The notes beneath the pieces are model-generated. The model saw only the letters and a program-made list of their open reading frames with translations. It was not told where the DNA came from and made no database searches. Shown piece after piece: positions 33,926 through 57,186 of a stretch of DNA of 57,186 bases. Position numbers and translations under genes: made by a program. The DNA is from a virus (taxonomy: Duplodnaviria; Caudoviricetes): positions 1 through 57,186 of IMG/VR virus record IMGVR_UViG_3300044970_001263. One strand, given 5' to 3'. The number at the start of each line of letters is the position of its first letter. The first letter of the stretch is position 1.

Positions 33926-34182
33926 TGTCAGAGCCAGTTCTAACAGTACAGTACGCTCCTAACTACCCTGGGCTGCCAGGTGAGGAGCACGCTTTCTTTG
34001 TTCATTTTGCCTACCAGCTACAGGGCGATACATATACTGGAAAGTTTTTTATGTATTCTCACCCAGCTGTTTCATGCCTCATTGACCATAACGCTCGTCT
34101 TGCTGACGAGGAGATTACTGATGCTGGCAGGCTAGAAGTTCGCAAAATGATCTGGGAAATTCACAATAAGTTAGGGATTTAA
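33925..34182 (+). CDS. Hypothetical protein
   Basis: TGATG-coupled ORF. Confidence 0.65.
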   Translation: MSEPVLTVQYAPNYPGLPGEEHAFFVHFAYQLQGDTYTGKFFMYSHPAVSCLIDHNARLADEEITDAGRLEVRKMIWEIHNKLGI

Positions 34183-34203
34183 CCATACCCTGAGGAGGTG
34201 CGT

Positions 34204-35364
34204 ATGAACCGACTCAGAGTTACTATAGTAACCACGATTATCTTTACCGCCGCGTTTACTGCGGCACTATTCTCCGCTACGCCAGTCAAGGGGCTGGACG
34301 ATGCGGATACTTGGGATCAGCAGATTGATGCCAATGGCACGATCACGCTGGAAGAAGGCTCCATTGTAATCGACGGGTCAAATTATCCGTTGCCAGGGCA
34401 GCCTACGCAGAATACCTCAACGCAAATCACCACCATTGTATTGGATGGTGAGACAGTCACCTTTGACTGGTCTTATTTCACCACCGACGGCGCGTTCTTT
34501 GACAAGCCGCAGGTGCTCTGGAACGGCGAGTGGTACAACCTCGTTGAGGGAAATGCGCAGAGTGGAAATGGAACGATGACTGGGTATATCGCCGCTGGCG
34601 GTCTATTCGGGTTTAGAGTTCTGTCCACAGATTCCTGCTGTGGCGTAGGGACGCTTACGATTACGAATACCTCTTGGATTGTCGGACCTCCGCCAACTCC
34701 AGAGCCAACTCCTGAACCAAGCCCAGAACCAACCCCGACTCCTGAGCCGACACCAGAGCCAACTCCTGAGCCGACCCCTGAGCCAACGCCTACCCCAACC
34801 GTAGAGCCAACGCCAACTCCGACTCCAGAGCCTACGCCTGAGCCTACGCCAGAGCCGACGCTGCCGCCAACGCCAGAGCCAACTGTAGAGCCAACGCCTG
34901 AGCCGACACCGACTCCAGAGCCAACGCCACAGCCAACTCCAGCGCCAAGTCCGCAGCCAAGCGAGGAGCCGTCAATTGAACCAACACCGAACCCGACTGC
35001 CACACCCGAGCCGTCGCCCGAAGCGACCGCTTCGCCCGTTCCTGTGGTATCTCCTGATCCCACTAGCGTTCCTTCTCCTGAGCCAGAACAGCCCACTCTG
35101 CCGTCTCCCGTAGAGGCAATTGGTGCGGCTGCTGAGGCAGTAGGAGAGGCTGTCGCTGCGGTCGGCGAGACCATTGGTGCAGCAGTTGAAACCGTTACCA
35201 ATCTCGGCAAGGATCTCTCTCCAGTTGAGAGGGAGAAGGCTCGTGAAGCCGTACTGCCAGCAATCATTGTCACTCAGGTGGCGCAGGCTGCAGTCGGAAT
35301 GGCTATGGCTGCACTCGGCAATACACCTTCAGGTGGCAGCAGCACGACAAGGAGCCGTAAGTGA
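34204..35364 (+). CDS. Secreted/surface protein with a PTPE-repeat stalk
   Basis: Signal-peptide-like N-terminus, beta domain, about 140 aa Pro/Thr/Glu linker, hydrophobic C-terminal helix. Confidence 0.8.
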
Positions 35365-35531
35365 TTAAGAAGATCATTAATGAAATCGTAGCCACTGGCT
35401 GGACTGTTTTCGGTCTTGCCATTGCATGGGCAGTTTTGCCCGACGGAGCAACCCGCGACTTTGTTGGCGCGACCCTGTTGTTTCTGACACTAATCTGGGG
35501 TCTTACGATGCCCCTTCGCATTAAAGACTGA
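35361..35531 (+). CDS. Small two-TM membrane protein (56 aa)
   Basis: Translated by hand ([29 protein letters not shown]...); AAGGAG RBS, GTGA overlap. Confidence 0.75.
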
Positions 35532-35541
35532 GGAGAAACTC

Positions 35542-36177
35542 ATGAAGTTTAAGGTCAAGTCACAACTCGACCACGTTGAAAAGGGCGGAATTCTGGATGA
35601 CTGCGGTCCTTCCAGCGTGGCTGCTCTAGTCGCTTGGGCATCCAAGTACAAGGTTGATCCCTCCGCTGGAGATGGCATCAAGGCAAAGGCGAAGGCAACT
35701 GGCTTCGTTGAGAAGCAGGGCGTATCCGATAACGGATCATCGCTGGGAGACCTTATCAAGACGGCAAAAGTCCTTGGCGCTACCGCTCGGTACGCAAAGT
35801 CTTGGGACGATGTTGTCGCTTCCGCAACTCGCGGCGCTGGTATCGGCGTGTGGGTGCAGCAGCCTGTTGGCTATCCAGTAGGTCTAGAGATCTCTGAGTG
35901 GCACAAGCGCTGGGAGAAGTGGTGGGGTCCTAAGGGTGGCGGCGGGAAGAAAGACCCGAAGCACATCAAACTTGGCTACGGTCACATGACCGCTGCTGGG
36001 TGGGACTCAGTAGAAGGCTGGCAGTGGGCTTGCCCAACTCGTTCAGGCAAGGGCAAGGAGCAGTTCGCCGTCAAGGTGACTGAGGCGCAACTCAAGGAGA
36101 TCGCCGACTCTAAGCGCGTTTCTGGAAAGAGCAAGGGTCTCCCACACAAGCACGTCATTATTGTTGAATGGAAGTAG
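35542..36177 (+). CDS. C39-like cysteine peptidase, candidate endolysin
   Basis: SQLD...DCGPSSVAAL catalytic Cys motif, downstream GH; lies next to a holin-like gene. Confidence 0.65.
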   Translation: MKFKVKSQLDHVEKGGILDDCGPSSVAALVAWASKYKVDPSAGDGIKAKAKATGFVEKQGVSDNGSSLGDLIKTAKVLGATARYAKSWDDVVASATRGAGIGVWVQQPVGYPVGLEISEWHKRWEKWWGPKGGGGKKDPKHIKLGYGHMTAAGWDSVEGWQWACPTRSGKGKEQFAVKVTEAQLKEIADSKRVSGKSKGLPHKHVIIVEWK

Positions 36178-36185
36178 GGGTAAAT

Positions 36186-36479
36186 ATGTACGCAGATCTT
36201 AAGGCATGGGTTCAGCACATCAAGGACAACACTGGGGTCGATGAGGCTCTCGTGGAGTTCTTCCGCACCTTCGTAACGGTTTCAATTTCCGTTGCGCTTG
36301 GTCTTGGTATTCCACTTCTGGACATCTCTGGCGGTGACTTCCGAACAATTCTTTCGGCTGGTCTCGCTTCTGGTCTCCAGATTCTTGTAAAGTATCTTGA
36401 CCCAAAGAACACAGCGTTTGGAATCAAGGAGAAGGCTCCTGAGGATAAGGACGCTGATAACGTTCAGTACGACATCTAA
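36186..36479 (+). CDS. Holin-like membrane protein
   Basis: Two hydrophobic helices, KYLDP...FG and a charged tail. Confidence 0.65.
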   Translation: MYADLKAWVQHIKDNTGVDEALVEFFRTFVTVSISVALGLGIPLLDISGGDFRTILSAGLASGLQILVKYLDPKNTAFGIKEKAPEDKDADNVQYDI

Positions 36480-36495
36480 TTAGAACGACAGAACT

Positions 36496-36532
36496 CGCCC
36501 CCTTCAGGCTACGGCTTGAGGGGGGCGGTTTT
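36496..36532. terminator. Terminator between convergent arms
   Basis: CGCCCCCTTCAGG...CTTGAGGGGGGCG followed by GTTTT. Confidence 0.75.
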
Positions 36533-37156
36533 GTGTTTCCTGTAGATAAAGAAGCGACCGACCCAATCAGTCCCATCAAACGCCTCGTCAAGTGCAACCT
36601 CGCTTCGGTGGATTGGAACCCACTCTGGGTGCAGTTCGGCGATCTTCTTCTCCCACCACTCACGGCTCTTCATCGTGACGTGCGTAACGTCCACATCATG
36701 CTCTGCTGATGCTCCGTCTGAGAGTGCAATGCGGAGCCAGATCTCCCCGCCGACTTTAACTACGCGGCTCATGTCATCAAGAATTGAGCCGACCTTACCC
36801 TCTGGGATGTGCTCAAAAAACTCCCACGATGTGAGGATGTCAAATACCTCAGTCGCGTACGGGAGACCGTACTCCACATTGGCAACGGTCAATGCGCCTT
36901 GAGCCATCGGTGCGCAGTTCTCCACTGCGTAGCGGCTTACATCAACACCAAGAGCCTCGTGCCCACGCATATTGCAATGGTGCACGAACCACCCTTTGGC
37001 TGCTCCTACATCAAGGATGGTAAGACCGCGCATACCATACGGCTCCTCAATGAGATTGATAATCGGATTCCAGCGAGGATCGTCAGAGTAGTTCTTGTAG
37101 TTAGAGCCTTCTGCTCGCTCGAAATACCCCTCGCCGTACTGTTCCTCAGCCGTCAT
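36509..37156 (-). CDS. Class I SAM-dependent methyltransferase
   Basis: ILDVGAAKG, GVDVS, FDILTSWEFFEHI, RVVKVGG. Confidence 0.88.
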   Translation of the reverse strand: MTAEEQYGEGYFERAEGSNYKNYSDDPRWNPIINLIEEPYGMRGLTILDVGAAKGWFVHHCNMRGHEALGVDVSRYAVENCAPMAQGALTVANVEYGLPYATEVFDILTSWEFFEHIPEGKVGSILDDMSRVVKVGGEIWLRIALSDGASAEHDVDVTHVTMKSREWWEKKIAELHPEWVPIHRSEVALDEAFDGTDWVGRFFIYRKHKTAPLKP

Positions 37157-37338
37157 TCTCCCCTTCTCCGATCTTTCTTTGCCCAGCCTTCTCCTTTGTA
37201 GAGAACTCCTGGCGCAGTAAAGACCCGCTTCATCTTGGTGTTGTCTTCTGGGCAGCGAACTTCTTTGTTGCTGTTCATAGACACTACCACGTCCATCACG
37301 AGGTCGCACTTCTTGCAGATGTACTCGTAGGTAGCCAT
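37153..37338 (-). CDS. FmdB-family zinc ribbon protein
   Basis: TYEYICKKC...CP....MKRVF...YKGEGW. Confidence 0.85.
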   Translation of the reverse strand: MATYEYICKKCDLVMDVVVSMNSNKEVRCPEDNTKMKRVFTAPGVLYKGEGWAKKDRRRGE

Positions 37339-37339
37339 G

Positions 37340-37501
37340 TTAGCGAAGGTTGATAAGTGCGAACAACGAGATGGCGTGGATTGCGAACGCTACATTGCGT
37401 ACTGCCAGCGACTCGCCGTCCTTGTGCTGGAGATAGGCTCGCATAAAGCCGATGCTCTGGAAGATCCAGATCACGACGAGCCACGCATACCAGAAGTTCA
37501 T
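37340..37501 (-). CDS. Small membrane protein (53 aa)
   Basis: Translated by hand (MNFWYAWLVVIWIFQ...); GGAGG RBS, ATGA overlap. Confidence 0.7.
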   Translation of the reverse strand: MNFWYAWLVVIWIFQSIGFMRAYLQHKDGESLAVRNVAFAIHAISLFALINLR

Positions 37502-38019
37502 CGTGGATCCTCCAATTTATCTAGAATGGCCAATTTAATTTTCATAATACCACGGCTCTTGGATACACCAAGTGCATCCCAAACCTCTGGGGCGAGGTCA
37601 ATCAACCGCTCGTCTCCATCCACCTTAACCTTGCCCTTGCAAGAACACCAGTCCACCACCCAGACAAGGACGCTGCGACCCGTTGCCACCGAAGTGACTA
37701 GGACGGTATAGGGCTTGTTGGCGTAGGTAAAGTTTCGGTACTTTCGGAGTTCTGGACCAGCCGCACCGTAGAATCGGTATGGACCATCCTGCTGGTTGCG
37801 AGCAGAACCCCCATTCTTGCGTGTGTACCACGCATTGTTCTTTGTTGCATCATACCAAGTAGCAATTCCCTCAAGGGTCACGATGTTCTTGATAGTGACC
37901 TCAACTTCAGGGGTTGGACTTGGTGACGGCTCCACTACCGCTGGCTTCGGAAGCACAATCGTTCCCGAGAGTGCGACTACAAAGATCGCGGTGAAGAGCG
38001 CGTTCAGGATGAACCTCAT
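37498..38019 (-). CDS. Membrane-anchored RlpA-like double-psi beta-barrel protein
   Basis: N-terminal TM, GIATWY, V.VVD and RLIDLAP..W.ALG. Confidence 0.75.
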   Translation of the reverse strand: MRFILNALFTAIFVVALSGTIVLPKPAVVEPSPSPTPEVEVTIKNIVTLEGIATWYDATKNNAWYTRKNGGSARNQQDGPYRFYGAAGPELRKYRNFTYANKPYTVLVTSVATGRSVLVWVVDWCSCKGKVKVDGDERLIDLAPEVWDALGVSKSRGIMKIKLAILDKLEDPR

Positions 38020-38372
38020 TAGTCGGTGAACCCTAGCCACGATTGCTCGTTGCGGCTCACAAAGACTGGCATACACCCCTTATCGCTTGCGGCGTATGCC
38101 CCAGCGATGTTGAAGTCAAAAAACTCCACAGCCTCAAGGTAGAAGTCGCGGTCGCTCAGATCGTCCATTGGGAACGACTCCTTCGCGCTGACCTCAAACT
38201 CTTGCTGGAGCGCCTCAATAATCTTGTCTCGGTCGTACACCGCAACTGGCTTGATGCCCTGTGGCGTGAAGTGCGAGCCGTAGCCGATGAATGCGTAGTC
38301 ATGCTCGCGCATAACTACTGCGCCATCAAACTCCTCGCTGTACATTGTGTCGTGCTTAATCTCTGGAGTCAT
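38019..38372 (-). CDS. Acidic hypothetical protein
   Basis: AVYDRDKII...EAVEFFDFNIAGAY...P pattern familiar from aquatic phages. Confidence 0.75.
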   Translation of the reverse strand: MTPEIKHDTMYSEEFDGAVVMREHDYAFIGYGSHFTPQGIKPVAVYDRDKIIEALQQEFEVSAKESFPMDDLSDRDFYLEAVEFFDFNIAGAYAASDKGCMPVFVSRNEQSWLGFTD

Positions 38373-38830
38373 GCTTCACCTCGCTTCTTATACCGTGGAG
38401 CCTGATCGTCACCGCCATAGAGATCCTCAATGGAGATGTTCAGAATCTCCAGCAGCGCAGGGATCATGTTGGAACGAGGAGTCGTTCGTCCATGCTCCCA
38501 GAGACTGACTGCTGCCTGCTTGATACCAAGCGCATTAGCCAGTTGCTGCTGCGATACATTCGCCGCCTTACGGTAGCGTCGGATGTTATTACCGATTGTA
38601 CTCGCCGTTTGAGATACGTCAAGCGAGCGGACACGGAAGCGTGGCTGCTCGTACGTCTTGACCTGATCCGCATTGACGACGACTGGTGAATCTGATCCCT
38701 CAATCCGAACCACATAGTAGTCCAGCGTGGCTCCATCGGCAGTACCCACACGGATACGCTCCTTGAGCACCTCGCCACGGATTGAGACGATTGCACCTCC
38801 TTTAAACGAGAAATCTACATTGTCGGACAT
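38369..38830 (-). CDS. XRE-family HTH regulator with an extra N-terminal domain
   Basis: IRRYRKAANVSQQQLANALGIKQAAVSLWEHGRTTP. Confidence 0.9.
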   Translation of the reverse strand: MSDNVDFSFKGGAIVSIRGEVLKERIRVGTADGATLDYYVVRIEGSDSPVVVNADQVKTYEQPRFRVRSLDVSQTASTIGNNIRRYRKAANVSQQQLANALGIKQAAVSLWEHGRTTPRSNMIPALLEILNISIEDLYGGDDQAPRYKKRGEA

Positions 38831-38847
38831 CTAGTGCCTCTCTCTTT

Positions 38848-39477
38848 CTACGATTGCCAGCGCGTGGAGTGGAGTTCTGGGTACCCATCTTCATTCCCTG
38901 ATGGTGTCTTATGGATACCAGTTGCGTTCCTAAAGATTTCCTCAATGGCTTCCTGCGTGTCCACATATCGTGGGTGTCCGTAGGTCTCCATTGCTAGTGC
39001 GTTTACGAAGTCTACTGGATCTACCTTGCCCATACTGTCCCAGTCCTTTGCGAACGCAAGGCAGTACTGCTTGGTGATCTGACCCTCATAAGTCTTGAGA
39101 GTATCACAACTACGCTTTACATCGCGGACGCGGACTCGACCTACGAAGATAATGTTTACAAAGTCTTCAACAAACATCTCTTCGCCGTCAGCCTGCTTCG
39201 CCGCTTGCATCATCTGGGCTATCGTCGACTGTCCACTCTTCACCCTCGTCGTTATACGAGATGCCATATCCGAGAGATAAGCCAAGCGATTCTTCTGTTC
39301 GTCGGTAAGCGGCATCAAGATCTTCGAATCGCCCAGTAGACGTTGGGCTTCCACAAGTGACTCGAGGGCACCACGCCCACGATCCTTCGCCGCTACTTTT
39401 GGCGAGGGTGTAGGTCGGGTCTCCACAAGAGGCACAAGGGGGACCGTCGCCAAGTTGCCGAACTTTACGTCGCTCAT
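38848..39477 (-). CDS. Hypothetical protein
   Basis: GGAGG RBS, ATGA overlap, no motif recognised. Confidence 0.75.
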   Translation of the reverse strand: MSDVKFGNLATVPLVPLVETRPTPSPKVAAKDRGRGALESLVEAQRLLGDSKILMPLTDEQKNRLAYLSDMASRITTRVKSGQSTIAQMMQAAKQADGEEMFVEDFVNIIFVGRVRVRDVKRSCDTLKTYEGQITKQYCLAFAKDWDSMGKVDPVDFVNALAMETYGHPRYVDTQEAIEEIFRNATGIHKTPSGNEDGYPELHSTRWQS

Positions 39478-39719
39478 AGCGTACACCCTCCGTCGCATTC
39501 TGGTTCGTCGCAGTCGTAGCAGAGTCCGCTATCGGTTCGCTGCTGGTCGCAGAGGAGAGTGACTCCTCGCCGACAGGCATCGCATTCACAGGATTGGACT
39601 TCAATGACTGGCTGCTCCTCCCCCTCTTCGGGAGAGGAGCGCCTGTCTGGTTCTTCTTCCGCGACAACCGCAATGATTGTTTCATGATCTTCTGGATCTA
39701 GTCCAGACCAATCAGTCAC
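39474..39719 (-). CDS. Small acidic Cys-rich protein
   Basis: CECDAC and CYDCDEPEC; overlaps both neighbours in operon fashion. Confidence 0.65.
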   Translation of the reverse strand: MTDWSGLDPEDHETIIAVVAEEEPDRRSSPEEGEEQPVIEVQSCECDACRRGVTLLCDQQRTDSGLCYDCDEPECDGGCTL

Positions 39720-40284
39720 CGTTTACCAGCGATGCCACGGCTGCGGCGTACGCTGGGTCAACGGATGGTGCGGTGTTCGTTGCTGGCTGGCTGATCTCAG
39801 CAGACCCAACGCTTCGGCGACCAGCCAAAGGCTTGATCGTCACAACGCGGTTCTTCTGCTTGCCATCGTTCTTTCCCAAGTAGACAATCAGCGAGAGGCG
39901 AACCTCACGACCAACCAACTCCTCAGTATCGCCCGAAGGAATCTTGGAGTTCAGGTCAGAGATACCATTTGCTGCGAGGAAGAACTGGCGAGCAATGCTT
40001 GCCGTGCCATCCTGCTTGAACCCCATGCGGCTTGGATCAACGTCCTTCCAGATCCAGCGGGACTCAACCTTATTGCCGTCAATGTCCTCAATCGGAGCAC
40101 CGTCAGCGAATGAAAGGATGTCAAACTTAATGGTGAAGACATCAATGATCTTCCCCTCAAAGTTTGGCTTAGCCTGCTGCTTGATCTCTAGGATCTTGGC
40201 GCGATAGTCTTCGTTTCCTGGAAGTGCCTTTCGGTCTTCCACTCCACTAAACTCGTCTGCCCCAGGAACTGAATAGTTAGCCAT
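39712..40284 (-). CDS. Putative single-stranded DNA-binding protein (DUF669-like)
   Basis: LP...Y.AKI.E, ELVGREV and KNRV beta pattern with a disordered tail. Confidence 0.65.
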   Translation of the reverse strand: MANYSVPGADEFSGVEDRKALPGNEDYRAKILEIKQQAKPNFEGKIIDVFTIKFDILSFADGAPIEDIDGNKVESRWIWKDVDPSRMGFKQDGTASIARQFFLAANGISDLNSKIPSGDTEELVGREVRLSLIVYLGKNDGKQKNRVVTIKPLAGRRSVGSAEISQPATNTAPSVDPAYAAAVASLVNGD

Positions 40285-40374: not shown

Positions 40375-40453
40375 CACAACCGATAACTTATACTTATCTT
40401 AGTCTATCATATACAAGTTATAAGTACCTCCTCTCCACTTGTCCACAAACTGG

Positions 40454-40464
40454 TGTGCTATAGT
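40454..40464 (+). promoter_or_regulatory. Extended -10 promoter for the replication operon
   Basis: TGTGC-TATAGT upstream of the GAGGAGG RBS. Confidence 0.6.
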
Positions 40465-40498
40465 CCCCCCGTCAAACATTTTAGTTAGAGGAGGTTCT

Positions 40499-42783: not shown

Positions 42784-43015
42784 AGGCATAGAAGTAGAAA
42801 AGGTATTTGTTCCAGAGACAGGCGACTTGACCGCAGACGGCAAGCGAGCCATTGAGAACTTGATAGACAAGGACATCTTGATCACCGTTCGTGGAAAGAT
42901 TAGGTATGTCGGAAGCCGCGTAGCAACCATCCAAGCAACCGATGCGTATGACAAAGTGGATACCATCGGAGTAAGGCTGAGCGATATTGCGGGGCTGGAG
43001 TTCCCAAATGAGTAG
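42770..43015 (+). CDS. Hypothetical protein
   Basis: AAGGAGG RBS before MKFPK. Confidence 0.75.
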   Translation: MKFPKGIEVEKVFVPETGDLTADGKRAIENLIDKDILITVRGKIRYVGSRVATIQATDAYDKVDTIGVRLSDIAGLEFPNE

Positions 43016-47402: not shown

Positions 47403-47413
47403 CTCTCCTCCTT

Positions 47414-50558: not shown

Positions 50559-50629
50559 ATTACACCTCCTCCATACTTCGGGGCAGCCGAACGACTGCCC
50601 TCACAACCTATACCCTGAAACCTAACAGA

Positions 50630-50903
50630 CCTGATTTCCATTTCCTTTGTCCTTCCATTTACTAGCGGCTGGTTTGTGGGGGGTGCACTCTTACTACAAA
50701 GTCCCCACCGACCAATCTTGAGGCTAATGAACCAAAGGTTCGCCCCAGCAGAACAGGTAGTTCGGGGTGTCTGCCACCTCATCCCCTAGCGATAGATCTT
50801 TGATGGCTACCTTTCACCGAGAGCGGCGCAACTGGCTTATGTACACTCCACCAGTCACTAATGCTCAGGGTTACCACGAGTCGCCAGACCCATCGTCCCT
50901 TCC
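50630..50903 (-). ncRNA. Candidate ~270-nt structured RNA
   Basis: Lies between boxes 50911 and 50612 with no RBS-led ORF; several hairpins. Confidence 0.45.
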
Positions 50904-51031
50904 ACTATATACCCTAGATCCTAACATAGCATCTTTGGTACACAGGATACCCTAAACCCTAACACACCATACTGACCCTAGATTCTAACACACCAACCAT
51001 TTGTTATAAAATAAACAAATGGTAAATAAAT

Positions 51032-51229
51032 CTAAACCTTCAATCCGTACCGACGCAGATCGCGTTTGAGATTCTGCACCGCACGATTATCGCTTGGCGT
51101 GAACGATGAGAACACCTTCGCACCATTCGGGGAGACCCACGATAGATGCGTGTTCTTTCGCTGCTCAACTCGCCAGCCCTGCGAAACCGCGATGTCAAAT
51201 AAATCTTGGTAAACCTTCGGGACTCTCAT
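51032..51229 (-). CDS. HicA-like protein
   Basis: QGWRVE....HL....P.G......TPSD.RA..NL..DLRR.G. Confidence 0.75.
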   Translation of the reverse strand: MRVPKVYQDLFDIAVSQGWRVEQRKNTHLSWVSPNGAKVFSSFTPSDNRAVQNLKRDLRRYGLKV

Positions 51230-51366
51230 CTCAGAATGCTCCAAACAATAATCCCCAAAGTAATCAGCGCGCAGACTGCGATGGTCGCATCCTGCCGCTC
51301 TCGTGTCTTACGAGCCTCCTTCACATAATATGACTCAATGTTGCGTACCTTCTTGCGTGTCCTCAT
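51226..51366 (-). CDS. Small basic single-TM protein (46 aa)
   Basis: Translated by hand; AAGGAGG RBS, ATGA overlaps on both sides. Confidence 0.7.
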   Translation of the reverse strand: MRTRKKVRNIESYYVKEARKTRERQDATIAVCALITLGIIVWSILR

Positions 51367-51731
51367 TCCACACCTCCTTGCTCAATGTCCAAATAGCGGG
51401 ACTTCTTGCCCACAACAAACTCCAGTTGCGTTAGCAGCCGCTTCGCCTCGTCCAGTTTGAGACGGATCGGCATCAAGTCATCAGCCAGATCACGACCTTC
51501 TGGGCTTGAGACCCAGATCGTCACGAGCGCATCCTGACCTAGTTCGCTCTGCTCATCAAAGTCTGCGTCCACCCATAGAGAGATCTGACCGACGATGCCG
51601 ACGAACGGATCGCTGTAGACAGGAACCTCCTGCCCATAGTCAAACACATTCTTGTCGTTCTCCTGTCGCTCAATCGTTGCGTGAACCGCATCCTGAATCA
51701 CCAGCGGGAAATCTTTCGCGTTCATACTCAA
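51363..51731 (-). CDS. Acidic hypothetical protein
   Basis: RBS and ATGA coupling. Confidence 0.75.
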   Translation of the reverse strand: MSMNAKDFPLVIQDAVHATIERQENDKNVFDYGQEVPVYSDPFVGIVGQISLWVDADFDEQSELGQDALVTIWVSSPEGRDLADDLMPIRLKLDEAKRLLTQLEFVVGKKSRYLDIEQGGVE

Positions 51732-52510
51732 CCTCCGATGCTCATAAAGCCTTCGTCATTCCAAAGGCGCATTCCGTTGTCGTAATATTCCTTACTGATC
51801 ACTCGCTTAGGGTCGTCCTCCCAGAATGGATCAACCTCAATAGTCTCACCTTCTGACTCAACTTCCCAGAAGCCTTCGTCTGTGCATTCTCCGTTGATGA
51901 AAGTATTCTCTCCGATGAAGCCCATCCCCATCTCTGCAAACTTGATATGCACGATCAGGTCAGGATACTTCGCCGATAGTTTTTCTAGGATACGCATCGG
52001 TGGAGACCACGCCGTATCAAAGTTGATAGACACAGCGCGGTCGTACTGGTTGTAGCCAGAGACGGATACATCATCCCCGCTAACGCCCCACTTCGTGCCC
52101 CAGTTTGCGATATTCCAGTTCCACCAGAATAGTGGGTGCTCCGACACCTTGATTCCCAAGTGTTCTGGGCAACGCTCAACAGGAGAGCCGATCTCGCTGG
52201 CAAACGATCCGTCAATCTTTGCGTTATCCTTCAGCGGTGGCTTGCCATTGACTAGCCACGCTCCATTAGGAGCCTCGCCCACATACTCAGCCTTGCAGTC
52301 GCACCCTACATAAGAGTGCTGCGACGGCTCGCCCCGATAGATGCGCGCATCCTCTGGGTCGCCAATCGGCGGTGGCACAATCTTGGCGAAGTCAAAGTCA
52401 GAGTGCTCCGACTTGATCTCGCTAAGAATCTGCTTCAGTCTCTCCTCCGCAGACTCAGCCTTGTCGCTCTCAGCCCTGAGCGTAATAGTATTGCCGCACC
52501 AGTTAGGCAT
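51728..52510 (-). CDS. DUF1281/YubB ferredoxin-like domain protein
   Basis: MPNWC.N, WNIANWGTKW, FDTAWSPP. Confidence 0.85.
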   Translation of the reverse strand: MPNWCGNTITLRAESDKAESAEERLKQILSEIKSEHSDFDFAKIVPPPIGDPEDARIYRGEPSQHSYVGCDCKAEYVGEAPNGAWLVNGKPPLKDNAKIDGSFASEIGSPVERCPEHLGIKVSEHPLFWWNWNIANWGTKWGVSGDDVSVSGYNQYDRAVSINFDTAWSPPMRILEKLSAKYPDLIVHIKFAEMGMGFIGENTFINGECTDEGFWEVESEGETIEVDPFWEDDPKRVISKEYYDNGMRLWNDEGFMSIGG

Positions 52511-52707
52511 TAGAACCTCCCCTTCTTGTTGTAATGATTGCTAAGCGTCTGATCAACCTTGTCGCCGACCAGTAGGATCACACCAAGCAGACCAAGACCA
52601 GACAACGCCCCGACGATCACGCCGAGAGAGTTGTTGCCGTTCAGCCCTGCGATGAATCCACCTCCGAACATAAACCCGAATGCTACTAGCGTATCCTTCG
52701 TATCCAT
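52510..52707 (-). CDS. Gly-rich small membrane protein, paralog of 3373-3558
   Basis: MDTKDTL...GLG.L....D.VD..L..HY. Confidence 0.85.
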   Translation of the reverse strand: MDTKDTLVAFGFMFGGGFIAGLNGNNSLGVIVGALSGLGLLGVILLVGDKVDQTLSNHYNKKGRF

Positions 52708-52773
52708 CTCAACCTCCTTCTCTACTTGATGAGGGAACTTCCCTCATTATATACCCTAGATCCTAACAGACCA

Positions 52774-53184
52774 CTATTCCCAAACATATTCCAAGTCAGG
52801 AGATTCATCCCAACCGAACTTAGAATAGTACTCAGGATTCTTACGCAGCAGATTGCTCCGATGCGATGCGTGGAAGTCCTCGCGTCCCAACCACTTTGGA
52901 ACTACGATAGCCGTCTTGTAGTTTCGGTACGCCATAATCTTGGCGAAGCAAGTGTCCTTGTATCCTCGCTTGATCCACTCAGTACAAATCACCATCCCAT
53001 AGATCGCCAGAGCGTTCTCGTAGCCGCGCCACATCTTTGTGGCGGGATGGTTCACCCACCCCTTTGTCTCGCCAGCCAACGCTTTCAGCAGTTGTAAAAC
53101 TTCTACGCGCTGCTTACCAAGTCGTTGGCGGTCAAGAACTTGCGCCGACTTCTCAAAGTCGTTGTACGGCAGGAAAGTCTGCAT
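52774..53184 (-). CDS. Pyrimidine-dimer glycosylase/endonuclease V-like (MSMEG_6728 family)
   Basis: MQTFLPY...LD..RLGKQRVE...HPA..MW...SHRSNLLRK. Confidence 0.85.
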   Translation of the reverse strand: MQTFLPYNDFEKSAQVLDRQRLGKQRVEVLQLLKALAGETKGWVNHPATKMWRGYENALAIYGMVICTEWIKRGYKDTCFAKIMAYRNYKTAIVVPKWLGREDFHASHRSNLLRKNPEYYSKFGWDESPDLEYVWE

Positions 53185-53600
53185 TAGTCCCACCACCAGA
53201 CTACTTGGTCGCCACGAATCTCAAACTCGTCCGCTCCAAGATTCGCACCTCGTAGCGCAGCAAGAGTCAGCGTCTTTGAGTCTCCGACAGGCGTAGAGGC
53301 ACACAGACCCTCAACGCTAAGTCGTGCGTCCGTGCGTCCTTGACCGACAACATACCCGATGAAGTGAACATCTAGTCCCTGCTCCATCAGTTTGCCAGCC
53401 TCAATGAGAAGCATCGGCAGACCGATAAAGTTATTCCATCGTGTAATATCTGCCAACTCAGGAGCAGCCTCAATCGCACCGATCAACTCGCCGACCGACA
53501 CATTTGAGAACCTTCGTAGCCCACCGCTCCAGTCGCCATCAAAGTTCCCGACCAGCGCATCCTCAATACGAGAGACCGCCAGATCCTTATCCTCAGACAT
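53184..53600 (-). CDS. Hypothetical protein
   Basis: GAGGAGG RBS; C-terminal WWWD. Confidence 0.75.
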   Translation of the reverse strand: MSEDKDLAVSRIEDALVGNFDGDWSGGLRRFSNVSVGELIGAIEAAPELADITRWNNFIGLPMLLIEAGKLMEQGLDVHFIGYVVGQGRTDARLSVEGLCASTPVGDSKTLTLAALRGANLGADEFEIRGDQVVWWWD

Positions 53601-53802
53601 TATCCACCTCCTCATCTAAATCCTCAAACCCAGAGACCAGAGCCTCCCCGACAATCTGTCGTGGGTCAGCATCGTAAACCACAGGGACGGCTCGGTCAAT
53701 AACCTTGTCGTCCTCCTGAATCACGATTACATCCAGCCCCTCAATATCGGTTGTCGCATCAGCGACTAGACCACCACGAACCTGAATCACTACTACTGGC
53801 AT
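53593..53802 (-). CDS. Small acidic protein
   Basis: I.V.GG.V motif; A box at 53826 plus RBS. Confidence 0.8.
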   Translation of the reverse strand: MPVVVIQVRGGLVADATTDIEGLDVIVIQEDDKVIDRAVPVVYDADPRQIVGEALVSGFEDLDEEVDNV

Positions 53803-53845
53803 ACTTCCCTCCTTCCCTACTATATACCCTAGAACCTAACATACC

Positions 53846-54175
53846 TTATTGGTGCTGCTCTGGCAGACAAGCCGCGCAGTACGGAACACCTATATCGGTA
53901 TTCAGTTGCTTAGACGCTGGGTCGTACCAAATAATATCGTCCTCAACCACAATGCCGTCGCACTCTGAGCAGTTCTCTACATCGTCAAACTTCTCAGCCC
54001 TGCGATCCTCGCAGCCCCGACAATAAACCAGCACCACGCCAGACCAGTTCTTGTTGCTGTAAAACCACTCGCCGTTGTTATCATTGGCTTGTAGCGACTC
54101 GCCGCATTGGTCGCACTTTGTTGGCTCCTCGTCCATCAAAATCTTTCTATTCATCTGATCACTCATCGCTGCCAT
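53846..54175 (-). CDS. Double zinc-ribbon protein
   Basis: Four CxxC pairs. Confidence 0.75.
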   Translation of the reverse strand: MAAMSDQMNRKILMDEEPTKCDQCGESLQANDNNGEWFYSNKNWSGVVLVYCRGCEDRRAEKFDDVENCSECDGIVVEDDIIWYDPASKQLNTDIGVPYCAACLPEQHQ

Positions 54176-54378
54176 CAGTCCTCCTCGTAGCCGTCAAACC
54201 ACGCGCCGTACTTTGCCGTGTGTGCCTTACCCGCTACGCTCTGCGTCGTGCTGCTGCTTGTGTCTGGGTCGGAGCACCATCGCTGAACCTGTTCTAGCGT
54301 CTTGCCCCTTGCCAGAACCCGCGTAGGCTCGTCGCTCAGATACATCCGAACCACCTTGTACTTCTTGCCGTCGCTCAT
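54175..54378 (-). CDS. Hypothetical protein
   Basis: A box at 54399 and AAGGAGG; TLEQVQRWC.DP.TSS...WFDGY. Confidence 0.8.
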   Translation of the reverse strand: MSDGKKYKVVRMYLSDEPTRVLARGKTLEQVQRWCSDPDTSSSTTQSVAGKAHTAKYGAWFDGYEED

Positions 54379-54401
54379 AGCCACCTCCTTCACTATATAC
54401 C

Positions 54402-54767
54402 CTAGACCCTAACAGACCGCTCTACGCTCTTGACCGATCCACAACGATGGCATCGGAAAGTCTTGCCGTCCCACTTGTCTGGTTCTGGCTCAACCTCCAC
54501 GCCTCCTGCGTCAGTCGTCCCGAATCCGTCCGCGTTCACATCATTACCGCACTCGCAGACAAGGAAGTCGCCGTCGTACCTGATCTCGTGCTCCTGATGG
54601 TCGTAGGCTCGTCCCGCGTGAACCGCGCTGATCTCCTCCTCCCACCAGTCGCCGATCTCCATCTCTCTGGCGATCTCCTCAGCCTTCCGCATTGCTTCCG
54701 CTGCGGTCTTGGCTTCCACTCTGATCTCAACATCCGCTACCTTGCGAACCTCAACCTCAAAGATCAT
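54402..54767 (-). CDS. Zinc-ribbon hypothetical protein
   Basis: CECG and CHRC; the stop codon lies inside a box. Confidence 0.75.
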   Translation of the reverse strand: MIFEVEVRKVADVEIRVEAKTAAEAMRKAEEIAREMEIGDWWEEEISAVHAGRAYDHQEHEIRYDGDFLVCECGNDVNADGFGTTDAGGVEVEPEPDKWDGKTFRCHRCGSVKSVERSVRV

Positions 54768-55039
54768 TACTGAACCTCCTCGTCAATGAATCCGTCCAGT
54801 CGGAACTGATCAACGATCACCCCCGCTGGCACTTCCGTGCCGTATACCCGATGCGAGACACCCTCTGGCATCTCAATGCGCTCGTCGCTGTCTCCGTTGC
54901 GTACCGCCTCAATCGCCGCCTGTGCCACCGCGATCATAGATCGTGGCGGTGCGGGATAGAGATTGCTGGTCATATGCCACTCCAACGCGACATCCTCGCT
55001 TGCTACCTCGCGCATCCCCATCAGTCCTGTGTATCCCAT
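54767..55039 (-). CDS. Hypothetical protein
   Basis: A box at 55063 plus AAGGAGG. Confidence 0.8.
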   Translation of the reverse strand: MGYTGLMGMREVASEDVALEWHMTSNLYPAPPRSMIAVAQAAIEAVRNGDSDERIEMPEGVSHRVYGTEVPAGVIVDQFRLDGFIDEEVQ

Positions 55040-55081
55040 ATCAGTACCTCCTTCCACTATATACCCTAGAACCTAACATAC

Positions 55082-55387
55082 CTATTCTAGATACCACTCA
55101 ACCTCAGCGAGATCGCCGTCGTAGAGCATCTGCTCAACCGCAGCGAGATCCATCCCTCGCACCACTTGCGCGAACGCCGTGTCGCAGTCCAAGCAGTAGA
55201 GTTCCTCAGCCGTAGTCTGGTCAGGGAATAGATCCTCGTAGAAGTCGCTCAGCCAGAACGCCCGACCACCATCCTCAAAAGGTTTCAGGTTTGCCAGCAC
55301 CTTCGCCGTGATGCTGATGCCACGAGGGTAGTCCGCTTCCTTTGCCTCGTCGCACTTGTGTCTGTAATACTTATTCTCTCCTGCCAT
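55082..55387 (-). CDS. Hypothetical protein (HxC...CxxC)
   Basis: A box at 55424 plus AAGGAGG. Confidence 0.8.
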   Translation of the reverse strand: MAGENKYYRHKCDEAKEADYPRGISITAKVLANLKPFEDGGRAFWLSDFYEDLFPDQTTAEELYCLDCDTAFAQVVRGMDLAAVEQMLYDGDLAEVEWYLE

Positions 55388-55426
55388 ATAGCACCTCCTT
55401 CTTGCTATGCCTTCCTACTATATACC

Positions 55427-55687
55427 CTAAACCCTAACATACCGCAAGATATTCTGCGCTGTGTGTGCCACAAACTTCTCGTGCTCCCCGCACTCGCACG
55501 GAGCGCAGTCCAAGCAGTAGAAACTCGTTGCCTCAGCAGCGTTATCCTCATTGACCACGATAAAGATATTCTTGGGGTGATCCGAATCCACCCGCACGCC
55601 TCTATCGCTCACCCAGAATCCAGCCACCACCTCGTCGGGGTAGTAGATCAGCGTGTCGCACTTGCTACAAGTCCTTGCCTCGTACAT
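55427..55687 (-). CDS. Cys-rich hypothetical protein
   Basis: A box at 55710 plus AAGGAGG; the stop codon lies inside a box. Confidence 0.8.
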   Translation of the reverse strand: MYEARTCSKCDTLIYYPDEVVAGFWVSDRGVRVDSDHPKNIFIVVNEDNAAEATSFYCLDCAPCECGEHEKFVAHTAQNILRYVRV

Positions 55688-55728
55688 TGTTCCCTCCTTC
55701 CTACTATATACCCTAGACCCTAACATAC

Positions 55729-55998
55729 CTACTTGTTGGCAGGGAATCGCTCCACGAGCCAGTCGTATGCCTTCTTAGCGTCCTCGTCCCCTGCTGCCAT
55801 AGCGTTGCCTAGATGCCCTGCGATATTCACGATAGATCCGATCAGAGCACGAGCGTTGTCGCGTTGCTCACGCTCCACCACGCTCACAATGTTATCCCCA
55901 AAGAGAGCCGCCATCGTCGCGTATCCCTGCTTGTCGGGAGTCAGGTCAATGAATCCCTCGTTGCGTTCCTTGATTGCTGCGTCCTTCATAGCACCCAT
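55729..55998 (-). CDS. Hypothetical protein
   Basis: A box at 56022 plus AAGGAGG. Confidence 0.8.
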   Translation of the reverse strand: MGAMKDAAIKERNEGFIDLTPDKQGYATMAALFGDNIVSVVEREQRDNARALIGSIVNIAGHLGNAMAAGDEDAKKAYDWLVERFPANK

Positions 55999-56078
55999 AT
56001 CAGCACCTCCTTCTACTCTATACCCTAAACCCTAACATAGCGGTCGGGGGAGCCAGTCGCCCGACTCCCCCGATACCC

Positions 56079-56444
56079 CTAAATATAATCGCTCAACGCT
56101 ACTACCTTCTCCATAGTCTCACCCCACGCGCAGCGGTAGTGCTTCACTCGTAGATCGCTCCACCCCTTACGCCACTCCACATATGGTCGGTTCTCCTGAT
56201 CCTGCGGGTCAATCCCACGACCACACACATAGCAGTCTCGTGGCTCAACCTTGTAGGCATCAAGGTGCGCGATCCCACACTTCCAAGTGCGAGTCCTAGC
56301 CCACGCCCGACGAAAATCGTCAAGGGTATCCGCACCCTCATACGCCATCCACCGCTTGCTGATGTGCTCACGCCCATCAGGGAGCGTGGTTCTAATCACA
56401 CCCCAATGCTCTGGCAGCGAAGTATTCCCCTTGTAGTATCCCAT
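56079..56444 (-). CDS. Hypothetical protein (CxxC...HxxC)
   Basis: A box at 56494; hairpin at ~56045-56073 downstream. Confidence 0.8.
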   Translation of the reverse strand: MGYYKGNTSLPEHWGVIRTTLPDGREHISKRWMAYEGADTLDDFRRAWARTRTWKCGIAHLDAYKVEPRDCYVCGRGIDPQDQENRPYVEWRKGWSDLRVKHYRCAWGETMEKVVALSDYI

Positions 56445-56514
56445 ACCCTACCCCCTACTCTATCGGGATCAGATTGTCTGACCCTCACCATATACCCTAG
56501 ACCCTAACATACCC

Positions 56515-56691
56515 CTATGGCAGCAGAGTCTGATACTCCTTTGGGCACTCCTTGTCGTACCCATTGCGCGCTCCGATCCAAGTAAGATCCTCGTGCTGAG
56601 CGAATAGTCGGGTGAACTGCTTAGTCCACCCCTTCTCGCACGCCTCGTCAATCTCCTTCTGAATCTGAACCAGTCGCTCGTCAATGCTCAT
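56515..56691 (-). CDS. Small hypothetical protein (58 aa, MSIDERLVQ...)
   Basis: Translated by hand; A box at 56713 plus AGGAGG. Confidence 0.8.
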   Translation of the reverse strand: MSIDERLVQIQKEIDEACEKGWTKQFTRLFAQHEDLTWIGARNGYDKECPKEYQTLLP

Positions 56692-56810
56692 ATGCTCCTC
56701 CTTCCAACATATACCCTAAATCCTAACATACCTATTTGCTTATAAATATTGCGTAAATAATACCCTTATATACCCCTAAAAATCGCCCGAAATACCCTAG
56801 ATATATCAAC

Positions 56811-56984
56811 TCATAGGGGAGTCTGCTTCCCTCTACGAGCCAGTAGTGCCTCCTGCTCCATACGCTTCTGACGAGCCTTCTCCATCAGTTCGTTGTGGAG
56901 TCTAAGCGTACCCTTCCCACTCATTACCATACGGAATGAGCGTGAATCTACCTTCTTGTCTCTATTGCTCTTGTCGTAGTCCAT
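56811..56984 (-). CDS. Small basic protein (57 aa, MDYDKSNRD...)
   Basis: Translated by hand; A box at 57005 plus GAGGAGG. Confidence 0.8.
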   Translation of the reverse strand: MDYDKSNRDKKVDSRSFRMVMSGKGTLRLHNELMEKARQKRMEQEALLARRGKQTPL

Positions 56985-57059
56985 ATCCTACCTCCTCACT
57001 ATATACCCTAAATCCTAACATAGCAGTCTAGGCATAATCCTAGCGTATAACAAGGCGAC

Positions 57060-57186
57060 GCGCCCGACGCGCTTATTTGTGCCACCTTGTACCACTTCCT
57101 ACCACTATATACCCTAAACCCTAACATACCGCCCTGTCTGGCGAACATCTGTTCTATTTGGTCTGACCCTAGAACCTAACACGCCT
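57060..57186 (+). repeat. 127-bp duplicate of bases 1-127 (circular assembly overlap)
   Basis: Identical by eye; 127 is a common assembler k-mer. Confidence 0.92.

Follow-up and report, generated by a model that had tools for sequence, protein, structure and literature searches.

In phage T5, EcoRI sites are reported to matter only within the first-step-transfer (FST) DNA (10.1101/866236), and BF23 and further tequintaviruses are described as showing the same dependence for Type I and Type II systems (PMC10644984). Sites elsewhere are tolerated, since pre-early products shield the later DNA by a mechanism that is given as still unknown (10.1101/866236, PMC10644984). In Autographiviridae (T7; Murciavirus), the position of a motif relative to the first-injected end likewise sets sensitivity. 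Murciavirus is restricted by a Type I motif only if the motif lies in the early-injected region, and the leading regions of these phages are hypervariable and thought to carry anti-defence genes (PMC12455610). According to the authors of the latter study, bioinformatic surveys have overlooked site location. The leading region found in conjugative plasmids is a further comparison system (PMC12455610; PMC13478746; 10.1101/2023.02.15.528439), which differs in its single-stranded entry by conjugation and its statistical effect sizes; complete multi-kb deserts are not reported in the available parts of these sources. Genome-wide avoidance was surveyed for whole genomes by Rusinov et al. 2018 (PMC6286503). 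A text search of that paper yielded no passage on site position, and its survey does not cover the polar class of motifs seen in the present genome.

The DNA analysed here (the window, 57,186 nt) stems from an uncultured phage of lake water. After removal of a 127-nt assembly overlap, it represents a complete, virulent-looking, siphovirus-like genome of 57,059 bp that was assembled as a circle (Table 1). As in T5, a site-free segment that may be the first to enter, here adjoining ~4.6 kb, is combined with sites elsewhere, and the leading ~10 kb of T5 is also dense in small genes, promoters, terminators and repeats (T5 annotation). Entry of T5, in contrast, is binary, proceeding in two steps with a single stop signal, whereas depletion is graded over ~28 kb in the present genome and a common inner boundary is lacking, the range being 53180 (TGCA) to 34065 (AGCT). 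Further differences are that the T5 FST is a 10-kb terminal repeat, that the present genome is half the size of T5 with unrelated structural genes, and that none of the 56 ORFs scanned with PHROGs or the 58 scanned with Pfam matched a family annotated as T5 A1/A2 (pre-early, DNA transfer). The first-step region of T5 is free of a few 6-mers (e.g. AGATCT, 0 vs 21) but contains no 4-mer palindrome desert, its per-kb densities resembling those of the remaining genome. The two systems are thus analogous in principle but not in signature. Murciavirus differs in that a single Type I motif was addressed by experiment (PMC12455610), as opposed to a multi-motif genomic signature. Autographiviridae are podoviruses that encode an RNA polymerase of their own and have all genes co-oriented; in the present genome, two orientation flips were seen and no RNA polymerase was found among the scanned ORFs.

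Table 1 Features of the window and extent of the motif deserts. Positions refer to the 57,186-nt window; for deserts, the last site before and the first site after the gap are given
Feature	Position	Strand	Remark
Early leftward arm, part 2	1–3650	−	repeating box-gene-terminator units
Depleted arm, part 2	1–4604		beyond assembly junction; 0 sites of all 13 polar motifs
gp1 (215 aa)	3735–4382	−	first sizeable gene of the depleted arm
CTGCGNNNNCCGCA exact repeat, three copies	4487, 4520, 4550 (span 4487–4563)	+	spacing 30–33 nt
Sawtooth discontinuity	4565–4605		observed/expected 0 left, ~1 right
AT-rich block	4612–4680	−	kept in 7/7 aligned sequences
Late (structural) arm	4972–34182	+	polar motifs at or near expected density
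TerL	5826–7247	+	late arm
Portal	7561–8856	+	late arm
Capsid	10694–11569	+	late arm
GT4 glycosyltransferase	11882–13057		within late operon
Tape measure	16834–21318	+	late arm
Tail fibres	up to ~33.5 kb	+	late arm
Depleted arm, part 1	34069–57186		motifs vanish successively going rightward
Lysis-like genes	34198–36479	+
Replication and nucleotide-metabolism block	40439–46727	+	PD-(D/E)XK nuclease, DnaB helicase, dNMP kinase, metallophosphoesterase
Early leftward arm, part 1	50612–57186	−	small ORFan genes, each with 16-nt box upstream
AGCT desert	34065 to 4945		exact count; gap 28,066 nt (27,939 in the 57,059-bp circular genome)
TCGA desert	39362 to 5257		exact count
CCWGG desert	40262 to 4748
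GTYRAC desert	40370 to 5484
ACGT desert	40980 to 5234		exact count
AATT desert	43492 to 5100
CATG desert	44302 to 4685		exact count
GGWCC desert	45766 to 4605
TTAA desert	46710 to 4838
ACNGT desert	46834 to 4671
CASTG desert	47306 to 4759
GTWAC desert	50870 to 4674
TGCA desert	53180 to 4693		exact count

Polar depletion of palindromic motifs

A sequence-only reading of the window had described deserts of AGCT, TCGA, ACGT, CATG and TGCA, and exact counts reproduce all of their coordinates. The deserts of AATT, TTAA, CCWGG, GGWCC, ACNGT, CASTG, GTWAC and GTYRAC were absent from that reading. The 13 polar motifs have circular gaps of 8.6–28 kb, and every right edge falls inside 4605–5484, just upstream of the terminase genes. 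The first site of a polar motif that lies right of the depleted arm is a GGWCC, and the AGCT desert comprises 49% of the genome. Large gaps are lacking for GATC, GCGC, CGCG, GTAC and CTAG, as had been claimed. A further group of motifs is avoided across the whole genome, similar to the class surveyed in PMC6286503. The scarcity of CCGG and GGCC in both arms, also seen in the sequence-only reading, amounts to 0 and 7 sites, respectively, the last GGCC before the remainder of the depleted arm being located at 37528; CCGCGG, CGCGCG, GGCGCC, TCGCGA and GRCGYC are zero or near-zero as well.

The 136 reverse-complement 4-mer classes were ranked by gap. Palindromes occupy all of the top eight ranks (approximate P from 8.7e-32 to 7.9e-13, with CCGG lacking any site), followed by ACTG with a gap of 2.2 kb (P 3.6e-7). 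Synonymous-codon shuffles (200 per gene) were used to obtain expected counts for the arm from 34066 to 4684. AGCT was observed 0 times compared to 85.3±6.4 expected (shuffle minimum 67) and TCGA 8 times compared to 124.0±8.7, followed by ACGT (13 vs 65.5), AATT (15 vs 42.1), CATG (25 vs 64.7), TTAA (19 vs 42.4) and TGCA (61 vs 78.7). For CCGG, the shuffles yielded 65.4 expected sites in the early and 56 in the late arm, with 0 observed in both; for GGCC, 1 site was found in the early arm (69.8 expected) and 6 in the late arm (69 expected). The control palindromes GATC (197 vs 182.7), GTAC (103 vs 109.7) and CTAG (80 vs 80.6) were close to expectation in the same arm. The five motifs named first are common in the structural arm, with 113 AGCT, 129 TCGA and 155 TGCA sites. 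Since the shuffles lie far above the observed counts and the controls are at expectation, amino-acid or codon composition does not explain the depletion. An artefact of strand skew, codon usage or low complexity, which the strongly negative GC skew and numerous repeats of the early arm might suggest, is refuted: codon shuffles and maximal-order Markov models predict 42–131 sites where 0–25 are seen, and the counts of seven further palindromic 4-mers in this DNA agree with expectation.

The shape of the depletion was analysed by pooling seven four-base motifs in 4-kb bins of distance leftward from 4680. Relative to the codon-shuffle expectation, the ratios are 0, 0, 0.14, 0.23, 0.23, 0.42, 0.64, 0.82, 0.75, 0.80, 0.90, 0.76, 0.88, 0.96 and 1.02, and the controls (GATC, GCGC, CGCG, GTAC, CTAG, ATAT, TATA) are flat over the same bins (0.83–1.05). 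The profile is a sawtooth with one discontinuity: it climbs from 0 to ~1 leftward round the circle and abruptly returns to 0 at ~4.6 kb. This is a continuous gradient rather than a record of discrete steps, and the proposal that the nested boundaries record entry order was overstated; nesting arises automatically because all deserts share one anchor. The boundaries of ACGT, AATT, CATG, GGWCC and TTAA sit within the plus-strand replication block and are therefore not coupled to transcription units. The AGCT boundary is located inside the late plus-strand operon, ahead of the lysis-like genes. As boundaries fall mid-gene and in blocks of either orientation, the gradient is positional, not modular.

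Related loci and the discontinuity near 4.6 kb

Among 30 related IMG/VR loci, 17 include at least 2 kb upstream of TerL and were hence assessable. Polarity is present in all seven loci with a TerL identity of ≥79%. The ten loci with an identity of ≤72% are not polar, L015 being so only partly (TCGA 8/113 upstream/downstream). In L009, the upstream/downstream counts are 0/57 for AGCT, 0/57 for TCGA, 0/44 for ACGT, 0/41 for AATT and 0/49 for TTAA. Nesting recurs in the longer sequences of G001 (1.5 genome units) and G008 (27-kb fragment), the motif sets of which are lineage-specific: G008 has an additional GATC desert of 11.1 kb, and TGCA and CATG are avoided in one G001 variant but not in the other. 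In a more distant relative (G004), AGCT, ACGT, AATT and GATC are missing genome-wide. The early arms of close relatives are hypervariable, and high-identity homology to the window starts at 4561–4571 in six of the eight close relatives that reach that far. That divergent early arms all lack the motifs argues for maintained selection and not for shared ancestry.

The discontinuity is located ~1.2 kb upstream of TerL and contains a GC-rich imperfect hairpin (4573–4606). Directly to its left are the three copies of CTGCGNNNNCCGCA, candidate protein-binding sites with no further exact copy in the window. Lambda has a cos genome, the last-packaged end of which is injected first. The position of the discontinuity upstream of the terminase genes is consistent with cos, and we infer a fixed genome end at a cos-like site. 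TerL belongs to the Terminase_6N/6C family, which does not settle the packaging type. With headful packaging, the leading end would be expected to blur into the late genes, so the sharp edge with full density right after it argues against this type. The AT-rich block contains a sigma-70-like promoter (GTTACA-17-TATAAT, minus strand, 4678 to 4650) that points to the early arm; that it lies to the 'trailing' side of the discontinuity fits poorly with a simple cos model.

The DNA is contained in 20 sequencing runs, in all of them as Logan contigs, and four runs were compared. Contigs bridge the proposed end in three of the four (X5, 4436–5039; X6, 4297–4861; X9, 4442–4696), and in X4 two contigs overlap at 4650–4675. 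The bridging contigs are compatible with concatemers, circles or a terminal repeat and lend no positive support to an end at this position. A depth step in the X4 contigs near 4676 (6.2 to 3.8) is too small to be informative.

The leftward early arm stops at 46911, and gene orientation switches at ~46.8 kb and ~40.3 kb. The 16-nt box of this arm is ACCCTRRAYCCTAACA (as written on the plus strand), followed by ATAT. On the circle, 38 boxes are grouped into 24 units; 18 of these precede the start of a minus-strand ORF by ≤120 nt. Several of the small early-arm proteins are acidic (pI 4.1–4.7). The gene gp1, followed by a strong terminator (3711–3671), occupies a position common to the relatives and exists in two variants with ~40% mutual identity. 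It is the 'sigma gene' after which the sequence-only reading had named this end. No family could be assigned to gp1: a Sigma70 match (region 2 or 4) was not obtained in Pfam, NCBIfam, PHROGs or PDB profiles, the single Pfam match at E≤10 is unrelated (0.21), and the AlphaFold model is too poor to use (pLDDT 55.8). A weak language-model lead (Atlas) points to clusters whose members carry Sigma70_r2 in 52% and Sigma70_r4 in 10% of cases. The label thus lacks support, whereas the depletion itself proved real, palindrome- and motif-specific, polar and sharply anchored beside the terminase genes.

Proposed genome entry and competing explanations

A depletion of multiple palindromic motifs that is strongest at one end is the pattern expected from selection against several host Type II specificities, and the interpretation given in the sequence-only reading is partly supported. 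Motif specificity, independence from coding constraint, the sawtooth shape and recurrence in relatives are observed features of the pattern; a physical end, polar and slow entry, and an early-arm function of broad anti-restriction effect are postulated in addition. With a probability of roughly 65%, the genome has fixed ends and enters with its ~4.6-kb side first, and avoidance is graded by exposure time before early proteins neutralise restriction. The virion DNA would most likely have its fixed end, as lambda does, directly upstream of the terminase genes at ~4565–4605, and the last-packaged end would be the hypervariable early arm, leftward from ~4.56 kb across the assembly junction. This end would enter the cell first, with the remainder following slowly or in stages. 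The entering DNA would be exposed to Type II enzymes of the host population until early proteins neutralise restriction, and sites nearest the leading end would be the most harmful. Selection may thereby have purged at least 13 palindromic specificities from the first 8.6–11 kb and progressively fewer further in, the trailing structural arm being effectively neutral.

Regarding the mode of entry, the orientation flips count against a T7-style process: transcription-driven entry cannot account for the whole graded zone, in which the replication block and the lysis-like genes lie on the plus strand, and no RNA polymerase family was found. Two further observations count against the main reading. 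The AGCT desert implies that half of the DNA is inside before the respective enzyme is neutralised, and neither an anti-restriction gene nor a DNA methyltransferase was recognised in scans of 56 ORFs (PHROGs) and 58 ORFs (Pfam), and the same is true of a phage RNA polymerase and of A1/A2-annotated homologues.

A sawtooth anchored beside the terminase genes is likewise predicted if virion DNA carries a position-dependent protection, i.e. a modification laid down at replication or packaging from cos/pac that fades with distance and covers the first-packaged late arm, so that the last-packaged arm alone would need site avoidance. The GT4 glycosyltransferase, the dNMP kinase and a HAD-like phosphatase that is also encoded would fit such a scheme. 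However, no DNA-modifying enzyme family was recognised among the proteins of the genome, the sole methyltransferase being Methyltransf_11 of the small-molecule type, and one modification would have to block at least 13 specificities including the A/T-only AATT and TTAA. In addition, the genome-wide avoidance of CCGG and GGCC indicates that the late arm is not generally protected. A graded, packaging-coupled DNA modification is not known to have a precedent. We consider this explanation unlikely.

Somewhat less probable again is an effect of expression priority, where the whole genome enters together and cuts in early or middle genes are lethal, while late cuts are re-ligated or repaired by recombination. 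The AGCT desert does correspond roughly to all non-structural genes, and a PD-(D/E)XK exonuclease and a helicase are encoded. Yet the AGCT boundary precedes the lysis-like genes within the late operon, other boundaries are mid-gene, and the observed/expected ratio climbs smoothly without steps at gene-class borders; it also appears implausible that a late arm with several hundred cuts would be rescued.

That the phage avoids sites of its own host-degrading nuclease(s) is an idea published for T5, where Davison proposed it for A1 (10.1101/866236), and the early arm is rich in ORFans without assigned function. Sites would have to be missing only from DNA that is in the cell during nuclease activity, so staged entry is still required and the idea is a variant of the main model rather than an alternative. 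We judge it very unlikely, as at least 13 unrelated specificities, with variation from one close relative to the next (GATC in G008 alone, TGCA and CATG variable), are unlike the action of one or a few nucleases. Just as improbable is a mosaic history, in which the arms derive from phages whose hosts differed in their restriction repertoires, and inheritance instead of maintenance accounts for the pattern. The early arm is indeed a recombination hot spot at whose edge the homology of relatives breaks, but the gradient is monotonic round the entire circle, all 13 deserts are anchored at a single point, highly divergent early arms are depleted in seven of seven close relatives, and the absence of CCGG from both arms implies a common host range.

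The principle of position-dependent restriction sensitivity is already experimental in T5/BF23 and Murciavirus; its occurrence as a multi-motif signature over half a genome is a new form. Beyond selection on a first-entering end, the sawtooth could be a sequence-encoded record of slow, gated entry, a proposal we regard as tentative and rather doubtful. The 24 box-gene(-terminator) units that make up the first ~11 kb would then act as a transcription-dependent ratchet that meters DNA, and the small, often acidic early proteins would accumulate until a wide range of Type II enzymes is blocked in a T5-like manner. The lineage-specific promoter-like boxes co-vary with the lineage-specific gp1. If this proposal is true, the place where each motif reappears would indicate, in kb, how long the respective host enzyme stays dangerous, and the profile could place genome ends and entry polarity of uncultured phages by sequence alone.

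Extent and shape of the palindrome desert

In the depleted, early arm (34066 through the assembly junction to 4684), the sites of seven palindromic tetranucleotides fall below the expectation obtained by shuffling synonymous codons 200 times, gene by gene: AGCT 0 observed vs 85 expected, TCGA 8 vs 124, ACGT 13 vs 66, AATT 15 vs 42, CATG 25 vs 65, TTAA 19 vs 42 and TGCA 61 vs 79. A maximal-order Markov model expects 32-131 sites per motif in the same arm. Control palindromes match the codon-shuffle expectation there. In the late arm, CATG and TGCA are at or near the shuffled values, and AGCT (113 vs 168 expected), AATT and TTAA are slightly low. Codon or amino-acid composition is thereby refuted as the cause, both models expecting far more sites than are seen, and a general avoidance of palindromes is ruled out by seven normal control palindromes. 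A sequencing or assembly artefact is likewise ruled out, as the same pattern is found in independent assemblies.

The sequence-only reading had described deserts of AGCT, TCGA, ACGT, CATG and TGCA. Exact counts reproduced each of its coordinates exactly, and the desert proved broader than these five motifs, with AATT, TTAA and several degenerate palindromes behaving alike (see table). When all 136 classes of tetranucleotides were compared, gaps of this size were restricted to palindromes. GATC, GCGC, CGCG, GTAC, CTAG, ATAT and TATA are unaffected, as are the degenerate motifs GANTC, GCNGC, CTNAG, TCNGA, AGNCT and TGNCA. Genome-wide, CCGG, CCGCGG, CGCGCG, GGCGCC, TCGCGA and GRCGYC have no sites and GGCC has 7. 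The early arm has one CGATCG site, against 13 in the late arm.

To obtain a profile, each site was assigned to a 4-kb bin according to how far to the left of 4680 it lies, and counts were divided by the expectation from 150 codon-preserving shuffles. The pooled observed/expected ratio of the seven tetranucleotides is 0, 0, 0.14, 0.23, 0.23, 0.42, 0.64 and 0.82 in bins 1-8 and 0.75, 0.80, 0.90, 0.76, 0.88, 0.96 and 1.02 in bins 9-15; that of the control palindromes stays between 0.83 and 1.05. The depletion profile is a sawtooth, rising continuously round the whole circle with a single discontinuity. The inner boundaries of the deserts sit within genes, and the blocks concerned run in either direction; the gradient therefore follows position, not operon structure.

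Genome layout and position of the discontinuity

The first 127 nt of the 57,186-nt window, an IMG/VR virus record, are identical to its last 127 nt, so that the assembly closes into a circle of 57,059 bp whose junction is arbitrary. A related 83-kb contig, in which the large terminase gene (TerL) recurs with a period of 55.3 kb, supports a genome of about 55-57 kb; the CheckV completeness estimate of 44% is at odds with a complete genome of this size. A siphovirus-like late operon occupies the plus strand (PHROGs and Pfam). The window has no recognisable tRNA gene, integrase, DNA methyltransferase or RNA polymerase, and megablast returned no cultured-phage match to 50000-57186. A GT4-family glycosyltransferase gene (11882-13057, +), whose product may add sugars to virion proteins or to DNA, is found within the structural operon, where the capsid and head-tail adaptor genes flank it. 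At 47414-50558 (-), where the early leftward arm has its inner end, the gene of an AAA_5 (MoxR-like) ATPase is paired with that of a 736-aa protein that carries a VWA domain at its C-terminus, and a gene for a DenV-like pyrimidine-dimer glycosylase is located at 52774-53196.

Gene blocks and additional motif deserts of the window (arrows denote intervals read through the assembly junction)
Feature	Position	Strand	Assignment
TerL	5826-7247	+	PHROGs/Pfam
Portal	7561-8856	+	PHROGs/Pfam
Protease/scaffold	8849-10672	+	PHROGs/Pfam
Capsid	10694-11569	+	PHROGs/Pfam
Tape measure	16834-21318	+	PHROGs/Pfam
Tail fibres	to ~33.5 kb	+	PHROGs/Pfam
Lysis-like genes	34198-36479	+	
Minus-strand block	36509-40284	-	
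Replication and nucleotide block (PD-(D/E)XK nuclease, DnaB, dNMP kinase, metallophosphoesterase)	40439-46727	+	
Long leftward arm, mostly small ORFans	~4.5 kb down through junction to 46911	-	
AATT desert	43492→5100		
TTAA desert	46710→4838		
CCWGG desert	40262→4748		
GGWCC desert	45766→4605		
ACNGT desert	46834→4671		
CASTG desert	47306→4759		
GTWAC desert	50870→4674		
GTYRAC desert	40370→5484		

The lowest first sites to the right of the edge are GGWCC at 4605, ACNGT at 4671, GTWAC at 4674 and CATG at 4685, which places the discontinuity at or below 4605. As the polar motifs combined occur once per ~27 bp in the late arm, it should lie at most a few tens of bp below this position. Of the 8 close relatives with contigs extending to this point, 6 have a long high-identity alignment to the window that starts at 4561-4571. 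The motif edge and the homology edge, two independent signals, thus both point to 4565-4605, which is about 1.2 kb upstream of TerL. Headful packaging was rejected, as the edge is too sharp.

For evidence on molecule ends, Logan contigs were the only data for all 20 sequencing runs, and four runs were mapped, with short unitigs, a depth of 3-7 and no molecule ends in view. In three of the four, a contig spans the proposed end; concatemers, circles or a terminal repeat would each give such bridging, which lends no positive support to an end at this place. Over positions 1-10000 in three runs (X4, X5 and X6), the summed contig depth left of ~4676 exceeds that just right of it about 1.5-fold. The drop in X4 is from 6.2 to 3.8, where the contigs break at 4650-4675. 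Such a step could hint at a terminal repeat, but it cannot serve as evidence, as the depth is low, is a per-contig value and recovers further right.

Early-arm boxes and conservation among relatives

Directly left of the discontinuity, CTGCGNNNNCCGCA occurs in three exact copies at 4487, 4520 and 4550 (4487-4563), spaced 30-33 nt. In an alignment with relatives, different short repeats, resembling AATATTCAT or AAATAGAACAA, occupy this position. To the right of the discontinuity, a conserved AT-rich block contains a sigma-70-like promoter that is directed leftward (4678-4650). The first sizeable early-arm gene, gp1 (3735-4382, -), is followed by a strong terminator. Further along the arm (50612-57186 and 1-3650), the 16-nt box ACCCTRRAYCCTAACA is present in 38 copies (≤2 mismatches) forming 24 units, all but one copy in the same orientation and often in pairs 26 nt apart. 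Each box is followed by ATAT(G/A)GT on the gene strand. The units lie upstream of small minus-strand ORFs (18 of 24 within 120 nt of the ORF start), often with strong terminators ahead of them, and the boxes account for a local excess of CTAG, TATA and ATAT. Acidic proteins are encoded at 51363-55387 of this arm. This box region of ~11 kb coincides with the core that is free of every polar motif. The motif-free core measures 8.6 kb for TGCA in the window and 9.9-11.1 kb for TGCA, CATG and GATC in G008, a 27-kb fragment of a relative.

The box sequence varies by lineage and tracks the gp1 variant across the window, five TerL loci of relatives (L003, L009, L004, L008 and L007) and the early arms of four longer sequences (G001, G008, G002 and G003). 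Two gp1 variants, ~40% identical to each other, each come with their own box: one pair is common to the window, L003 and copy 1 of G001, the other to copy 2 of G001 and L007. G008, G002 and G003 have a box of their own each. From sequence, this suggests that gp1 may be a specificity factor for early promoters, forming a lineage-specific factor-promoter pair, a role comparable to that of a phage sigma factor or T4 MotA. The designation of gp1 as a sigma gene is not supported, as no sigma family profile matched it, and the AlphaFold model, built on an alignment of 6 sequences, was of too low quality for fold searching.

A TerL search recovered 30 IMG/VR loci, of which the 17 that extend 2 kb or more upstream of TerL were assessed for polarity. 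The same profile, looked for in related genomes, is present in all seven close relatives assessed (TerL identity ≥79%) and in none of the ten more distant loci, L015 being partial only. The same nesting is seen in G001 (1.5 genome units) and in ~19.7 kb upstream of TerL in G008. G001 is an 83,149-nt IMG/VR contig (L008, L009, L034-L038) with TerL copies 96% and 93% identical to that of the window, and its two early arms are unlike in box and in the motifs avoided; the contig resembles two strains merged in one assembly, or a heterodimeric concatemer. A search for whole-genome relatives by DnaB found nothing beyond G001.

The sets of avoided motifs differ by lineage. AGCT is without any site throughout the clade of 79% TerL identity, G008 has an additional GATC desert of 11.1 kb, and TGCA and CATG are avoided in one G001 variant but not in the other, nor in L007. 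In the clade of ~50% TerL identity, the 51-kb G004 (L041-L043) lacks AGCT, ACGT, AATT and GATC genome-wide, with no polarity. AGCT, AATT and GATC are missing from all sequence seen of G004 and L019-L027, and ACGT in G004 and L027 only. Genome-wide avoidance is an alternative strategy of this clade.

The source of the DNA is lake water. A TerL scan of GTDB genomes gave as its sole match a 1.9-kb contig in an Actinomycetes MAG bin (53% identity over 162 residues). The nearest cultured portal matches are actinophages at ~25% identity, in a database dominated by actinophages, and a tail-associated protein matches haloarchaeal viruses at 33-36%. The cyanobacterial HIP1 octamer GCGATCGC has 0 occurrences in the window. 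The TerL and portal matches hint weakly at Actinomycetota as the possible host.

Staged entry as the likely origin of the gradient

The desert is real, statistically overwhelming and evolutionarily maintained. A graded palindrome depletion with a sharp edge beside the terminase genes is best explained jointly by a fixed genome end at this edge, by entry of the last-packaged early arm into the host first, and by a protective function that would accumulate while the remaining DNA enters. In lambda and SPP1, the last-packaged end enters first. We infer the slowness of entry, the motor behind it and the existence of an anti-restriction function. The flips in gene orientation argue against a purely T7-like, transcription-driven entry, and the leftward promoter sits beyond the inferred end, on its trailing side.

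Other explanations fit less well, namely a graded modification of the late arm linked to packaging or replication, a priority of early expression without staged entry, and avoidance of a nuclease of the phage itself. A mosaic history of the two arms also fits less well: despite their hypervariability, the early arms are depleted in every case, so that the pattern is kept by selection and not passively inherited. A compositional artefact is the poorest fit.

The desert acts like the leading-region effect of T5 and Murciavirus. In T5, EcoRI and CRISPR are reported to be effective on first-step-transfer DNA only (10.1101/866236), and BF23 and other tequintaviruses are described as resisting Type I and II systems as long as the first-step-transfer region holds no sites (PMC10644984). 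The comparable broad anti-restriction function of T5 is still unidentified according to these accounts (10.1101/866236; PMC10644984). A Type I motif is reported to restrict Murciavirus only if it falls within the region injected early; its authors state that bioinformatic surveys ignore site location and predict that the position effect should not hold for headful phages (PMC12455610). Unlike the window, T5 has no 4-mer desert in its own first-step region, and by the features testable here the window phage belongs to neither the T5 nor the T7 system. A text search of Rusinov et al. 2018 returned nothing on positional site analysis, and among the matches listed by full-text literature searches, none described a graded desert of many motifs over half of a phage genome. 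As a genomic signature, such a desert is a new form of the known leading-region principle.

Whole-genome avoidance statistics can miss or dilute strong selection on part of a genome, an issue raised experimentally by the Murciavirus authors in 2025 (PMC12455610). The sawtooth is a computational read-out of the leading genome end and of the fall-off of selection along the DNA. It is directly usable to infer, for uncultured phages, where the genome ends lie and with which polarity the DNA enters, and a scan for it could extend to millions of their genomes. It also flags this lake-phage lineage as one in which broad anti-restriction is to be expected among the functions encoded by the early arm, and the gain and loss of GATC, TGCA and CATG avoidance between close relatives provides a natural time series of adaptation to a changing host restriction pool.
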